DNA from: Enterobacteria phage P922 | Sequence record: OR999189.1 | Length of the DNA: 64,000 nucleotides | Direction: 5' to 3' (one strand) | Shown here: piece after piece, positions 14,932 through 58,597 of the stretch | Position numbering within the stretch: position 1 is the first letter of the stretch | Layout of the letters: every line of letters begins with the position of its first letter | Program-made: the position numbers and the translations under genes | Notes under the pieces: generated by a model | Databases searched by the model: none | What the model was told of the DNA's origin: nothing | Seen by the model: the letters and a program-made list of their open reading frames with translations, nothing else

Positions 14932-15582
14932 TTAATAATAGCCGAAATCTTGAACAGAATCCTTAATTACGATTTGGTCAAATCGTGGAACGTGTGAAGG
15001 TTGAGATGCAGGATTCTGTGAAAAAAGGTTTGGCGCAGTTAAATTTCCTGTCATAGTGTCTCCAGAGCGTAATACCCTAGAGTTTGCATTTGCTGTAACA
15101 GTATTTATTGCTCCATCAACATAATCTTTGCGAGTAACATCAGATGCTGCGGAAGGAGTAGATGTAACAGTTACCGATGGAGCCGTTACAGCCCTGGTAA
15201 ATGTTGTCAAACCTTCTGGCGTAATAGTAATTTGTCCAGTAGTGATTTCACTACCTGCTGGTCTAAAACTAATACCGCCAGAAGAGCCACCAACTACAAG
15301 AGTATTACCAGTGCCGCCACCAGAACGAATTCGGATAGGGGTTTCATTATTACTTAATTGAAGATAACTATTTACCCCGTAATTAATAGTAATTGGACCG
15401 GCGTAAGTACCACCATTAGCTTTAGAAACGAAATCGTTATCAGCTGCCTGCGGTTTATTATATTCTGAATATATTTTAAATGATTTGTAGAGTACATCGT
15501 CACCGGCTGAATTCAATGGAAAATTTCCTTGATGCCAAATGACAGATCCACCCACAGTTGAACCTACTTTTAAATCAGCCAT
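14932..15582 (-). CDS. 36: gp36 long tail fiber hinge connector
   Basis: 216 aa; position between 35 and 37. Confidence 0.8.
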
Positions 15583-15605: not shown

Positions 15606-15613
15606 TATTTATA
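15606..15613 (-). promoter_or_regulatory. late promoter TATAAATA upstream of gene 36
   Basis: reverse complement reads TATAAATA 24 nt upstream of gene 36 start. Confidence 0.55.
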
Positions 15614-15620
15614 AAGAAAA

Positions 15621-21668: not shown

Positions 21669-21938
21669 ATGGCTAAAAAAGAAATGGTTGAATTTGATGA
21701 AGCTATCCATGGCGAAGACTTGGCCAAATTTATCAAAGAAGCATCTGATCATAAACTGAAAATTTCTGGTTATAATGAATTGATTAAAGATATTCGAATT
21801 CGTGCTAAAGATGAACTTGGCGTTGATGGAAAGATGTTTAATCGTCTGTTAGCTTTGTATCATAAAGATAACCGTGATGTGTTTGAAGCTGAAACCGAAG
21901 AGGTAGTTGAACTTTATGACACAGTTTTCTCTAAATGA
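21669..21938 (+). CDS. dsbA: dsDNA-binding protein DsbA (late transcription)
   Basis: 89 aa; position between rnh and 33. Confidence 0.8.
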   Translation: MAKKEMVEFDEAIHGEDLAKFIKEASDHKLKISGYNELIKDIRIRAKDELGVDGKMFNRLLALYHKDNRDVFEAETEEVVELYDTVFSK

Positions 21939-22254
21939 TATTCGTCCGGTCGATGAGACCGGTCTTTCAGAAAAAGAACTTTCAATTAAGAAAGAAAAGG
22001 ATGAAATAGCAAAGCTTCTTGACCGCCAAGAAAATGGATTTATTATCGAAAAAATGGTAGAAGAGTTTGGAATGAGTTATCTTGAAGCTACAACAGCATT
22101 CTTGGAAGAAAATTCTATTCCTGAAACTCAATTTGCTAAATTTATTCCTTCGGGTATAATTGAAAAAATTCAGTCAGAAGCTATTGACGAAAATCTTTTA
22201 CGTCCTTCTGTTGTTCGTTGTGAAAAAACTAATACATTAGATTTTCTATTATGA
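21916..22254 (+). CDS. 33: gp33 late transcription co-activator
   Basis: 112 aa from ATG (MTQFSLNDIRPVDE...), matches T4 gp33. Confidence 0.85.
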   Translation: MTQFSLNDIRPVDETGLSEKELSIKKEKDEIAKLLDRQENGFIIEKMVEEFGMSYLEATTAFLEENSIPETQFAKFIPSGIIEKIQSEAIDENLLRPSVVRCEKTNTLDFLL

Positions 22255-22905: not shown

Positions 22906-23538
22906 ATGAATATAGTATATTGGTTTACATTTGAAGACCGTGTCAAAAATAAGACTCCGCCGTACTACTATATCGGCAGTAAATTAAATTGCTCATTTGA
23001 GAATGGAATAATATATGACTCTTCCGGAAAGGAATACTGGAGTTCGTGTAAACAAAAAAGATTTTTAAATGCGGTAATGCTTCAAAAACCGAGCGTTAAA
23101 ATAATTCAAATTGATGATGATTTGGATGTTATTGAAGCAGAGCGAAAATACCAACTTGAAGTAAATGCCAGAGATAATCCAGACTATTTTAATCTGGTAT
23201 ATGCCGGTGGCGGATTTGGTGTGAGTGGTGAAACTCATCCAGCCAAAGACCCGGAAGTTAGAGAGCATATGAGATTGGCTAATTATATGAACCGTGACGA
23301 TTTTAGACCTTGGAAAACATCACGAGCTAATATAGAGTCTTGGAAATTATCTCATATTGCTTACGAGAATTATGTGTTATTATTATCCTCTAATCTGTAC
23401 GGTAAAACTCCTGGATGGCGAAGAGTTAAAGGTAATATAAATATAACTGATACAACTGCTAAATCGATGGTAAAGTATTTCAACTCAGGTTGGATACCTC
23501 TCGAAGACCCAGAGTATTGCGAATTATGCCAGCTATGA
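22906..23538 (+). CDS. segG: GIY-YIG homing endonuclease SegG
   Basis: 210 aa; GIY-YIG-like motif (VYWFTF...YYYIGSK); located between 59 and 32 as T4 segG. Confidence 0.75.
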   Translation: MNIVYWFTFEDRVKNKTPPYYYIGSKLNCSFENGIIYDSSGKEYWSSCKQKRFLNAVMLQKPSVKIIQIDDDLDVIEAERKYQLEVNARDNPDYFNLVYAGGGFGVSGETHPAKDPEVREHMRLANYMNRDDFRPWKTSRANIESWKLSHIAYENYVLLLSSNLYGKTPGWRRVKGNINITDTTAKSMVKYFNSGWIPLEDPEYCELCQL

Positions 23539-32605: not shown

Positions 32606-34191
<1,586 letters not shown>

Positions 34192-54223: not shown

Positions 54224-54753
54224 TCAAATAATCCAATAATATTGCCAATTCCGGTTATTGGACCATTAGGGCCAGGAATTGCTAAAGTTGTAAAAATGTC
54301 ATTTGCCCATTTTAAAACGAATGCTGGCATCTCAAGAAAATTAATTTCTTTAACTTCATCATTGATCTTAAGCAAGCATTTGGATAACATATCGCTCACA
54401 GTTAAAAATTGTTCAAATTTTCCAGGAGGTCTAAAATAAAATGTATTTCCTTGGTATTGAAATTCCAATCTTTGACATACATAAACATCATTAATGTCAT
54501 AAGTATAACCATCTATTTCTTTACGAGATTTAATTTTTCCATTAAATTCCAATAAATGAATAGAAACGAAATCAACTTCTGCCGGTGATAAATTCGGACA
54601 AATAGAATCAATAAGAAGTTTTAAATTTTCATCAGGACCTTTAACATCTTTTAAAATGTTATAATGTTTAAGACCCATTTTAGGAATAGAAACTTCTTTA
54701 TTGCTTATTGGAAGAACTACTTTCTTCAGTGGTAGTATCAGATTTAAATTCAT
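54220..54753 (-). CDS. 28: gp28 baseplate hub distal subunit
   Basis: 177 aa, same as T4 gp28; overlaps gene 27 3' end. Confidence 0.8.
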
Positions 54754-55873
54754 TTTTAACCTTAACTGGGTCTATTGTTTCCAGTTTCGTTGCATTAGTG
54801 AACATATATAGATGAGTTACTGAATTATTATTGGATAATTCATGGATGACTTCATCAACGTAAAATTCTGTTTTAAATTGGTTTTTACTATCATTAAAAA
54901 TAATTTTAACGCCAGGAGTTAAGTTAAAATTACCGACAGTAGAACATTTAGCATAGCCATCGTATTGCGCCATAGTTTGAAGACGAATAGCTTCTTCATA
55001 TCCATTCCTATAAGTCATTTCAGAATAAGCACCTGACCTTGACACTACAATAGAGTTTTCGCCCTTTCCTGTAGTAATCATTGGCAATGAAGAATCTAAA
55101 AATGAATGCGCATAGATAGTAGCGTTTTTCATTGGGTCACGTTTGTGAGGATTCGATTTAGTCAACCAAACGAAATCATATGCTAATGGATATTTTAATT
55201 CTTGGATGAATTGACCTATTAAAGATGGCTCACCGACAATCATTGGATATGGTTCTTGATTTATCATCATATCATAGTCCATCATGTTAACTCCCATGAT
55301 GTCTTGCCACACAAATACAAATTTGTCACTTCCTACAGCTAGAGCAACTTCTCTGACATATGACAAATAGTTTTCAAATGTACTAGTCCATGGAATATCA
55401 GGAACATAAGCATTTATAGCATTTATCGCTGGAGTTAATAATGTGCGATCTTGATAGATGACGCCAAGCATTTCCTTTATAGATTCACCTGCATCAGGGA
55501 AAAACGGTCTGCCAAATTTAAGATTTTCTATAGAATGAATAGTTCCCAATTCAATAGCAATGATGTTATCACCCTTTGAATCTACTGACACGGAAAAATG
55601 CTTACATCCATAAATTCGTGTTTTAACATTATTAATATCGTTTGCATTAGCTACAGAAATCTGAATTATTTCATTTCCATCCATTTTTGTATGGATGTTT
55701 TTAGAATCATAAAACTGCAGCATTCCTTCATTTCGGCCATAAAGAGAATCCCGCATAGTTAATGTGGTAATAGTAGCAGCTAATTCAACAAATCTATTAT
55801 TACTCCAAGCGTCGTAGCTATCAAATAATTTAACGCTGAGATTTGGATATCCTGGGCGTTGCAACATACTCAT
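54698..55873 (-). CDS. 27: gp27 baseplate hub subunit
   Basis: 391 aa, same as T4 gp27. Confidence 0.85.
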
Positions 55874-56622
55874 TATTGTTTATCCTTCTCAATCAGTTTT
55901 AATACGAATCCGCGCTCGGCAGGAATCATTTTCATTATTGAATTTAAGCTATAATTACTTTTTACAAGTGTGTGATTAATTTGATAAAAAGTAAATATCT
56001 CATCTGGGTTAACTAATAGCTTAAACACATCTACTATATCAGTGTATTTTTTTACATACTTGTCGCAGCAGGACATATGTAGCGTTAAATTAATAGGATT
56101 CATTGCATCAAGAATTTTTTCTAATGTTTCTATCTCGATGGCATCAACAAGTTCTATTTGACTTGATTCGCTAATTTCCTTCCAATCATACCATGTTTCA
56201 TCTACTTGAACAGAATGAATATTTTCAGTAATCATCTTTGCTTTATTTTCATAAAACTCAGAAGGAAACTTTAATTTAATTTTAACATTAGCTACATCAA
56301 AAACAGGTTCCTTTAATTCTTTTTGATATATTTCAAATGGAACTGTCTTTTCTTTTTTACATTTTGGACATACAAATGTGACCGGTACTTTAGTTTTACC
56401 TATTGACCCTACAAATACCTGCAAAAATATAAATGGTTGCCAAGTCTTCGGATAGTCTCCAAAATAATCAGCAATTAAATCAGCAATTATTTCTTTTTGT
56501 TCTTGTGGTGACCGATGTTCTATATCGTTTCGAACTAACAAAAAATCTCGATAATCTTCTACCGTAAATGGTTTAAAACGATGAACACCATCTGGTAATT
56601 TACAACGAATAATGTTTGCCAT
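55873..56622 (-). CDS. 51: gp51 baseplate hub assembly catalyst
   Basis: 249 aa, same as T4 gp51. Confidence 0.8.
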
Positions 56623-56639
56623 AGATGCTCCTTTTATTC

Positions 56640-56651
56640 TATTTATAAATA
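56640..56651. promoter_or_regulatory. overlapping divergent late promoters (palindromic TATTTATAAATA) for genes 51 and 26
   Basis: TATAAATA readable on both strands, each followed by AAGGAG and an ATG at suitable spacing. Confidence 0.55.
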
Positions 56652-56672
56652 TGATAAATAAAGGAGCTAAAT

Positions 56673-57299
56673 ATGTATGAATACAAATTTGATGTGAGAG
56701 TTGGTTCTAAAATAATCAACTGTCGCGCATTTACTCTTAAAGAATATCTAGAACTTATTACTGCTAAAAAGAACGGTTCAGTCGAAGAGATCGTTAAAAA
56801 GCTAATCAAAGACTGTACAAATGCAAAAGATTTAAACCGCCAAGAATCAGAACTACTATTGATTCATTTATGGGCGCATTCTCTTGGAGAAGTTAATCAC
56901 GAAAACTCCTGGAAGTGCACCTGTGGAACTGAAATACCAACCCATATAAATCTATTACATACGCAAATAGATGCACCAGAAGACCTCTGGTATACACTGG
57001 GTGACATTAAAATTAAGTTCCATTACCCTAAAATTTTTGATGATAAAAATATAGCCCACATGATAGTATCGTGTATAGAAACGATTCATGCTAACGGGGA
57101 AAGCATTCCAATTGAAGACTTAAATGAAAAAGAGTTGGAAGATTTATATTCTATCATCACAGAGTCAGATATTGTAGCTATAAAAGATATGCTTTTAAAG
57201 CCTACTGTTTATTTGGCTGTTCCAATTAAGTGTCCAGAGTGTGGAAAAACTCACGCTCATGTAATAAGAGGACTCAAAGAATTCTTTGAGCTATTGTAA
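56673..57299 (+). CDS. 26: gp26 baseplate hub subunit
   Basis: 208 aa, same as T4 gp26. Confidence 0.8.
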
Positions 57300-57697
57300 T
57301 GGCAAATATTAATAAGCTTTATTCTGACATTGACCCAGAAATGAAAATGGATTGGGACAAAGACGTTTCCAGATCTCTTGGATTAAGGTCAATTAAAAAT
57401 AGTCTTTTAGGAATTATTACAACCAGGAAAGGGTCAAGGCCATTTGACCCAGAATTTGGATGCGATTTATCTGATCAGCTTTTTGAGAATATGACTCCTC
57501 TTACTGCTGATACAGTTGAGCGTAACATTGAAAGCGCAGTAAGAAACTATGAGCCACGTATTGATAAATTAGCAGTTAATGTAATACCAGTTTATGATGA
57601 TTATACTCTTATAGTAGAAATACGCTTTTCGGTCATCGATAACCCTGATGATATTGAGCAGATAAAACTGCAACTGGCTTCTAGTAATAGAGTATAA
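57299..57697 (+). CDS. 25: gp25 baseplate wedge subunit
   Basis: 132 aa; [22 protein letters not shown] matches T4 gp25. Confidence 0.85.
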   Translation: MANINKLYSDIDPEMKMDWDKDVSRSLGLRSIKNSLLGIITTRKGSRPFDPEFGCDLSDQLFENMTPLTADTVERNIESAVRNYEPRIDKLAVNVIPVYDDYTLIVEIRFSVIDNPDDIEQIKLQLASSNRV

Positions 57698-57763: not shown

Positions 57764-58177
57764 ATGAAATTAGAAGATCTTCAAGAAGAATTGAAGAAAG
57801 ATGTGTTTATAGATTCGACTAAATTACAGTATGAAGCAGCTAATAATGTGATGTTATATAGTAAATGGCTTAATAAGCATTCAAGTATTAAAAAGGAAAT
57901 GCTTAGAATTGAAGCACAGAAAAAAGTTGCTCTTAAAGCTAAATTAGACTACTACTCGGGACGAGGAGATGGTGATGAATTTAGTATGGATCGTTATGAA
58001 AAATCAGAAATGAAGACAGTTCTATCAGCTGATAAGGACGTTTTAAAAGTTGATACTTCATTGCAATATTGGGGAATTTTATTAGATTTCTGTAGCGGAG
58101 CTCTTGATGCTATTAAATCACGTGGATTTGCTATTAAGCATATTCAAGACATGCGAGCATTTGAGGCTGGAAAATAA
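57764..58177 (+). CDS. uvsY: UvsY recombination mediator
   Basis: 137 aa; matches T4 UvsY as recalled. Confidence 0.9.
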   Translation: MKLEDLQEELKKDVFIDSTKLQYEAANNVMLYSKWLNKHSSIKKEMLRIEAQKKVALKAKLDYYSGRGDGDEFSMDRYEKSEMKTVLSADKDVLKVDTSLQYWGILLDFCSGALDAIKSRGFAIKHIQDMRAFEAGK

Positions 58178-58401
58178 TGAAATATAGCATTGATGATGCT
58201 TTTAATTATGAAGAAGAATTCGAAACGGAAATTCAATTCTTAATGAAAAAGTATAATCTCAAGCGTCAGGATATTCGTATCCTGGCTGACCACCCATGCG
58301 GTGAAGATGTACTTTACATTAAAGGAAAATTTGCCGGATATCTTGATGAATATTTTTATTCTAAAGATATGGGCATTGATATGCATATGAGAGTTATATA
58401 A
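58177..58401 (+). CDS. hypothetical protein (74 aa)
   Basis: TAATG-coupled to uvsY. Confidence 0.45.
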   Translation: MKYSIDDAFNYEEEFETEIQFLMKKYNLKRQDIRILADHPCGEDVLYIKGKFAGYLDEYFYSKDMGIDMHMRVI

Positions 58402-58429
58402 ATAGATATATAATTTAGAGGAGACAATC

Positions 58430-58597
58430 ATGTCAGATAAGATTTGTGTTGTCTGTAAAACTCCAATCGATTCTGCATTGGTTGTTGAAACAGACAAAGG
58501 TCCTGTACATCCTGGGCCTTGCTATAATTACATTAAAGAACTACCAGTTTCAGAAAGTTCGGAAGAACAATTAAATGAAACACAACTTTTGCTATAG
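58430..58597 (+). CDS. small Cys-containing protein (55 aa), possible zinc ribbon
   Basis: GAGGAGACAATCATG start; CVVC...PGPC; hand-translated. Confidence 0.35.
   Translation: MSDKICVVCKTPIDSALVVETDKGPVHPGPCYNYIKELPVSESSEEQLNETQLLL

Follow-up and report, generated by a model that had tools for sequence, protein, structure and literature searches.

The window analysed here is the whole stretch of 64,000 nucleotides from Enterobacteria phage P922 (OR999189.1), and the locus under study is the short region between the divergent genes 51 and 26. The phage is a Tequatrovirus: the 1.3 kb around the site are 95–99% identical to about 500 T4-like records (best match 99.2%), the identity to the best database matches is about 98–99%, and gp26 is 98.1% identical to the T4 protein. 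Each of the two divergent genes leads a pair of baseplate genes, in the order that is also found in T4 (27 after 51, 25 after 26), and within each pair the coding sequences overlap by one base: the start of gene 27 overlaps the end of gene 51 at 55873, and the start of gene 25 overlaps the end of gene 26 at 57299. Concerning the protein domains, both gp51 and gp26 match PF12322, gp25 matches PF04965, and gp27 matches PF09097 and PF09096; gp26 and gp51 are listed in the literature as hub assembly chaperones (PMC3004832). The sequence-only reading had named the flanking genes as 51 (minus strand) and 26 (plus strand), and the annotation and the Pfam matches bear this out. The window also encodes the late-transcription co-activator gp33, whose match to the PDB chains listed in Table 1 has an E-value of about 3e-68. 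An 89-aa ORF (21669-21938, plus strand) overlaps the start of gene 33 and is a candidate dsbA by its arrangement; the overlap of dsbA with gene 33 has been described as a conserved arrangement (PMC2988020).

Read directly from the window, positions 56640-56651 are tatttataaata. This 12-mer is a perfect palindrome and contains the late-promoter box TATAAATA once on each strand, as had been claimed from the sequence alone; the two boxes have four base pairs in common (TATA, 56644-56647). The reverse complement of TATAAATA is TATTTATA, so a single box has no self-complementarity and the palindrome needs four extra specific bases. The surrounding sequence (56620-56675) reads ...CAT AGATG CTCCTT TTATTC TATTTATAAATA TGATAAATA AAGGAG CTAAAT ATG.... 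Downstream of the plus-strand box come 9 nt, AAGGAG, 6 nt and the ATG at 56673; downstream of the minus-strand box come 6 nt, AAGGAG, 5 nt and the ATG at 56622. The distance from box to gene is 21 nt for gene 26 and 17 nt for gene 51, and the earlier statement that AAGGAG and an ATG follow each box at suitable spacing was confirmed on both sides. The hexamer directly 3' of the box is TGATAA on the plus strand and GAATAA on the minus strand, with A or T in five of the six positions in each case. Both strands have a perfect 8-bp box, no conserved −35 element, an A/T-rich 3' segment and a late gene downstream. A sigma-70-like −35/−10 pair, as expected of an early or middle promoter, was looked for at the site and none was detected. 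The start sites predicted from the position of the boxes are 23 bp apart (56634 to 56657).

Table 1. Features of the 51/26 locus, gene 33 and variant palindromes. Positions refer to the window unless a phage is named; start sites are predicted from the position of the boxes.
Feature	Position	Strand	Remarks
Gene 33, trans-acting late-transcription co-activator	21916..22254	+	full-length match to PDB 3TBI and 7D7D chains named Gp33
Gene 27 (391 aa), baseplate hub subunit	54698..55873	-	presumed co-transcribed from P51
Gene 51 (249 aa), baseplate hub assembly catalyst/chaperone	55873..56622	-	leads leftward late unit
Imperfect 48-bp palindrome	56622..56669	.	24-nt arms, 71% complementary, no spacer
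Shine–Dalgarno AAGGAG of gene 51	56628..56633 (56633->56628)	-	5 nt 5' of ATG
Predicted P51 +1 (an A)	56634	-	12-nt leader; T4 116467, plus strand of the record
Palindromic 12-mer TATTTATAAATA	56640..56651	.	two late-promoter boxes, dyad axis between 56645/56646
Late-promoter box TATAAATA of gene 51 (P51)	56640..56647	-	taken as −13 to −6
Late-promoter box TATAAATA of gene 26 (P26)	56644..56651	+	taken as −13 to −6
Unshared half of P51 box	56640-56643	-	
Unshared half of P26 box	56648-56651	+	
Predicted P26 +1 (an A)	56657	+	16-nt leader; T4 116444, minus strand of the record
Shine–Dalgarno AAGGAG of gene 26	56661..56666	+	6 nt 5' of ATG
Gene 26 (208 aa), baseplate hub protein/chaperone, gp51 paralog (from profile similarity)	56673..57299	+	leads rightward late unit
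Gene 25 (132 aa), baseplate wedge subunit	57299..57697	+	presumed co-transcribed from P26
14-mer TATAAATATTTATA	Gualtarvirus L014 (1165-1178), L033, L059		plus-strand box 10 bp further upstream
13-mer TATTTATAAAATA	RB49-like Krischvirus L013, L064-L066		minus-strand box intact
10-mer TATTTAAATA	Aeromonas phage AS-gz group L015, L067-L069		TTTAAATA on each strand

The exact 12-mer is found once in the window, compared with 0.04 copies expected, and at least one copy appeared in 4 of 100 shuffles. By itself the box TATAAATA shows no enrichment in this AT-rich window, where 11 copies compare with an expectation of 9.3. Long ORFs start 17–34 nt downstream of 7 of the 11 boxes. The palindrome is the sole box site at a head-to-head late-gene pair, and TATT, which completes the palindrome, precedes just one of the 11. 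A chance origin is very unlikely, because the palindrome is conserved across genera.

Homologous loci were collected from 13 GenBank phages whose gp26 is between 100% and 28% identical to that of the window, and a scan of IMG/VR, anchored on the gp25 alignment and with 2-kb flanks, added 51 loci with both genes. Genes 51 and 26 are arranged head to head with a spacer of 45–70 bp in all sampled loci carrying both genes. The 12-mer occurs unchanged in 27 of the 35 distinct 51/26 spacers and spans at least ten T4-like genera; it is found in Tequatrovirus, Karamvirus, an RB69-like phage, Jiaodavirus, Marfavirus, Dhakavirus, Kanagawavirus, Lazarusvirus, Muldoon and Lasallevirus, and among the phages that contain it the identity of gp26 drops to 37% (Lasallevirus). 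In the 27 homologous sequences the A/T-rich and Shine–Dalgarno stretches reach at most about 1.5 bits. Between the 12-mer and the ATG there are 15–24 nt in the case of gene 51 and mostly 16–33 nt in that of gene 26, for which the lone value of 5 nt reflects an approximate gp26 start. The fixed feature is the 12-mer, not its distances to the genes. Judging from the same comparison, selection must act on both boxes, since the 12-mer is invariant in these 27 spacers while the bases directly outside it carry about 0.1–0.5 bits. The conservation could also be the outcome of purifying selection on two separate boxes, without any selection for their overlap, because any base change in the 12-mer breaks at least one box.

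The remaining 8 of the 35 distinct spacers contain variant palindromes (Table 1), and overlapping or abutting boxes are kept in every variant lineage. The boxes of the TATAAATATTTATA variant overlap by 2 bp and their predicted 5' ends cross by about 14 nt; one of its members, L033 (TATAAATATTTATAAATG), resembles an intermediate with three boxes. RB49-like phages have a disrupted plus-strand box (TATAAAATA), and a possible plus-strand box, ACTAAATA, lies just downstream. Distant T4-like phages that lack the divergent 51/26 pair are uninformative on the palindrome: no such pair is present in the annotation of the cyanophage S-SCSM1 and Chrysonvirus loci, and tblastn found neither gp26 nor gp51 near gp25 in L071-L097. 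In phage IME08 (L008, HM071924) genes 51 and 26 are annotated with extended starts, so that their coding sequences run across the promoter and share 22 bp (1174-1195 of the locus); these starts are probably wrong, since the sequence has the standard layout of box, Shine–Dalgarno sequence and ATG.

The 12-mer lies within a larger, imperfect palindrome of 48 bp, which also includes the perfectly complementary stretches GCTCCTTT and AAAGGAGC around the two Shine–Dalgarno sites. The two genes that face each other across the dyad axis are related as well. Both proteins match PF12322 over its full length, and although their pairwise identity is 19% (BLASTP, E-value 0.001), profiles built from 12 sequences each align over 192 collinear columns with an hhalign probability of 99.3% and an E-value of 7e-21. 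On this profile similarity, gp51 and gp26 are paralogs placed head to head around the dyad axis; the locus therefore looks like an inverted duplication, and an ancient inverted duplication of gene plus promoter may have been the origin of the palindromic promoter. The symmetry outside the 12-mer is explained by the A/T-rich leader and the Shine–Dalgarno sequence that both arms need. Concerted evolution or gene conversion of the arms was considered and rejected: the mean similarity score of a right arm to the left arm of its own lineage is 4.46, compared with 4.59 to left arms of other lineages (permutation p = 0.67). As single-stranded DNA the 51/26 spacer folds at −8.3 kcal/mol (z −3.3). A cruciform or hairpin is nevertheless unlikely as a functional entity, the stem consisting mostly of the Shine–Dalgarno arms, to which the A/T-only 12-mer adds little; the two arms are not present together in either predicted transcript. 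In two IMG/VR phages (L053 and L054) the entire 45-nt spacer is an almost perfect palindrome, AGTGTCTCCTCTTATT TATTTATAAATA CATAAAAAGGAGACACT, but the lineages taken together give no general indication that the arms are being homogenised.

A late promoter is simply an 8-bp box placed roughly one turn of the helix upstream of the start; an A/T-rich segment follows downstream, and there is no −35 element (PMC2988020). The numbering of the box as −13 to −6 follows from the phrase 'A(-13) in place of T' in the same source (PMC2988020). In the cryo-EM structure of the late open complex, the DNA is unwound from −12 to +2, and pockets of gp55 take up the flipped non-template adenines A-12, A-9 and A-8 (PMC7892883). 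The gp45 sliding clamp lies at the complex's upstream end and adds 13 bp to the footprint, the cross-links of gp33 map to −39 and −36/−35, activation requires a nick or 3' end in the non-transcribed strand, and the clamp retains the orientation given by the strand on which it was loaded (PMC2988020).

Our explanation of the locus, to which we assign a probability of about 0.85, is that the palindrome comprises two complete back-to-back gp55-dependent late promoters, which serve two divergent units, exclude each other on the DNA and are subject to the polarity of the clamp. The overlap of two late promoters back to back had been proposed in the sequence-only reading, and the consensus boxes, the identity of the spacer to that of T4 and the conservation all agree with it. 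The short predicted leader of P51, in which the Shine–Dalgarno sequence begins at +2, counts against this explanation. The minus-strand box would drive the leftward unit (gene 51 and presumably then gene 27) and the plus-strand box the rightward unit (gene 26 and presumably then gene 25). The late RNA polymerase, an E. coli core that carries gp55 and gp33 and is tethered to gp45, would recognise the box alone. The −12 adenines of the two promoters would belong to neighbouring base pairs (plus-strand 56645 and minus-strand 56646), so melting of both promoters is expected to nucleate at one central TA step, from which it would spread to the right for P26 and to the left for P51. The bubbles would then extend over 56645-56658 for P26 and 56646->56633 for P51, with the central TA step common to both. 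The region of each complex occupied by gp33 and the clamp (−35 to −45) would correspond to +13 to +23 of the other promoter, and each complex would cover the box and the start site of the other along with its first ~20 transcribed bases. Because of the shared bubble and the placement of gp33 and the clamp on the other promoter's early transcribed region, we infer that simultaneous occupancy of one DNA copy is physically implausible. Also, a polymerase that has just moved past one promoter would still block the docking of the clamp for the other. Given the polarity of the clamp, any one clamp would activate only one of P51 and P26; the two directions would therefore compete for occupancy of the DNA and not for the same clamps.

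A serious alternative concerns the significance of the overlap rather than the identity of the element, and we rate its chances somewhat below even: both promoters would work, but their overlap would be a passive result of compaction and head-to-head duplication, with an occupancy too low for interference. An inverted duplication of gene and promoter, for which gp51 and gp26 as head-to-head paralogs would be the remnants, would by itself yield a dyad, and in a spacer of 45–70 bp two promoters with short leaders must nearly touch or overlap. The register can also shift in evolution, as seen in the 14-mer, the 10-mer and the 13-mer of the RB49-like phages. Five E. coli bidirectional promoters that were tested show no competition at basal activity, and in that species competition comes into play only under strong activation of one direction (PMC12825309). 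Strong activation is, however, what the clamp confers on late promoters, which places them under the condition of competition in E. coli. Moreover, the 4-bp register is fixed while the distances to both ATGs drift by up to about 10–17 nt, which is at least compatible with selection on the overlap.

A more far-reaching version of the exclusion explanation is that the double promoter reads the orientation of the clamp and in this way balances the two paralogous hub-chaperone operons; we consider this improbable. The leading and lagging daughter duplexes behind one fork would activate opposite members of the P51/P26 pair, and steric exclusion would commit each DNA copy to one baseplate operon at a time. 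If this were true, the 4-bp register found across at least ten genera would have been selected for balance and would not be a by-product of compaction. In the literature searched, which did not extend to the primary T4 papers on the locus, we found no report of such a clamp-orientation device.

Two other readings can be given very little weight. According to one of them, only one box works, and TATAAATA on the other strand is accidental, that gene being transcribed from elsewhere; the box is indeed common in this AT-rich genome, 4 of its 11 copies have no ORF start within 34 nt downstream, and the RB49-like phages have an intact minus-strand box and a disrupted plus-strand one, but the palindrome demands four extra specific bases, all 12 of its bases are invariant over at least ten genera next to bases that are not conserved, the 50-bp spacer offers no other consensus box to either late baseplate gene, the region upstream of each gene is the antisense strand of the other gene, and both boxes are annotated in one GenBank record (OL960581). 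According to the other, which we regard as just as improbable, the dyad is the site of a dimeric DNA-binding regulator (candidate: DsbA), beside or instead of a double promoter. The perfect 12-bp palindrome within the 48-bp imperfect one and the candidate dsbA ORF at gene 33 would suit such a site, and DsbA binds A/T-rich sites that overlap two late promoters, if only with micromolar affinity (PMC2988020). Against it, the conserved block equals two consensus late boxes and nothing more, the variant lineages keep two late-type boxes in another register and not a fixed operator, the outer symmetry is explained by the two Shine–Dalgarno sites, and dsbA is described as non-essential (PMC2988020).

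Returning to the back-to-back late promoters, the palindrome would work like a prokaryotic bidirectional promoter, but it is not a sigma-70 one. In the sigma-70 class (Warman et al. 2021, Nat Microbiol, via PMC12825309; Warman et al. 2026, NAR) the two strands share a pseudo-symmetric −10-type element, and the divergent start sites flank it. The likeness lies in the opposite-strand elements, which overlap by symmetry in both systems, as the palindrome demonstrates here. The common start-site separations of E. coli bidirectional promoters are 18, 10 and 23 bp (PMC12825309), and the separation of 23 bp predicted here from the position of the boxes coincides with one of these. The differences are several. 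The motif at our locus is a gp55 box and not the −10 hexamer of the housekeeping sigma-70; recognition is by the phage gp55, through an 8-bp box and with no −35 element; the two boxes overlap by 4 bp, whereas in the sigma-70 class one hexamer is common to both directions; and the sliding clamp's orientation would pre-select the direction, a layer that sigma-70 promoters do not have. Which way transcription goes would depend on the strand whose adenines gp55 captures and, under activation, on how the clamp is oriented. Each half of the element resembles ordinary T4 late promoters such as P23: it has the same TATAAATA, A/T-rich downstream segment, short leader and strong Shine–Dalgarno sequence, and likewise no −35 element. 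Ordinary late promoters are read on one strand only, unlike the palindrome.

The locus is a natural test case, in which one 12-bp element contains two consensus promoters of equal core sequence. It could serve as a template for asking if competition between promoters and the polarity of the clamp determine the ratio at which divergent operons are expressed, and for studying the behaviour of a bidirectional promoter under a minimal sigma factor.

T4 has exactly the same 50-bp sequence between genes 51 and 26 (116429-116478), its 12-mer lying at T4 116450-116461; the element itself does not differ between P51/P26 of T4 and the window, and the flanking genes are the same. Overlapping T4 promoters for the divergent transcription of a base plate gene cluster were reportedly described by Scarlato, Storlazzi, Gargano and Cascino in 1989 (Virology 171:475), and P26 and P51 are said to be among the roughly 50 T4 late promoters compiled by Miller and colleagues in 2003 (MMBR 67:86). 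The 1989 work is not cited in the T4 reviews consulted or in a review of tail morphogenesis. The GenBank record OL960581, from a close relative, annotates both overlapping boxes as 'T4-late promoter' and cites Miller et al. 2003. Going by these reported descriptions and the one GenBank annotation, the overlapping arrangement of the 51/26 promoters is already known for T4, and as an item of a genome scan the site is ordinary. Added here are the paralogy of gp51 and gp26, with the look of an inverted duplication, and the clamp polarity, which implies one promoter per clamp. Deep conservation and paralogy add an evolutionary angle (inverted duplication) and leave the basic picture unchanged.

Other boxes of the window can be described briefly. 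After those at 23436, 33650, 40185 and 47222, no ORF begins in the next 34 nt downstream; for two of the four there is none within 200 nt, and for the other two there is one at 139–150 nt. Either these boxes arose by chance in A/T-rich DNA, or they are late promoters in an internal or antisense position. The sequence TATTTATAAAGA, found at 15606-15617 and at 33650-33661, agrees with the palindrome at 11 of the 12 bases and consists of a consensus minus-strand box and a degenerate plus-strand box. The first copy is located 23 nt upstream of an ORF on the minus strand (14932-15582), and the second has no ORF start nearby. Also, a consensus late box on the plus strand (58397-58404) overlaps the 3' end of the uvsY.-1 ORF (58177-58401) and is located 25 nt upstream of a uvsY.-2-like ORF (58430-58597). 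In OL960581 the homologous box carries a late-promoter annotation; the same record places a middle promoter between gene 25 and uvsY and lists bidirectional terminators that follow uvsY.-2.
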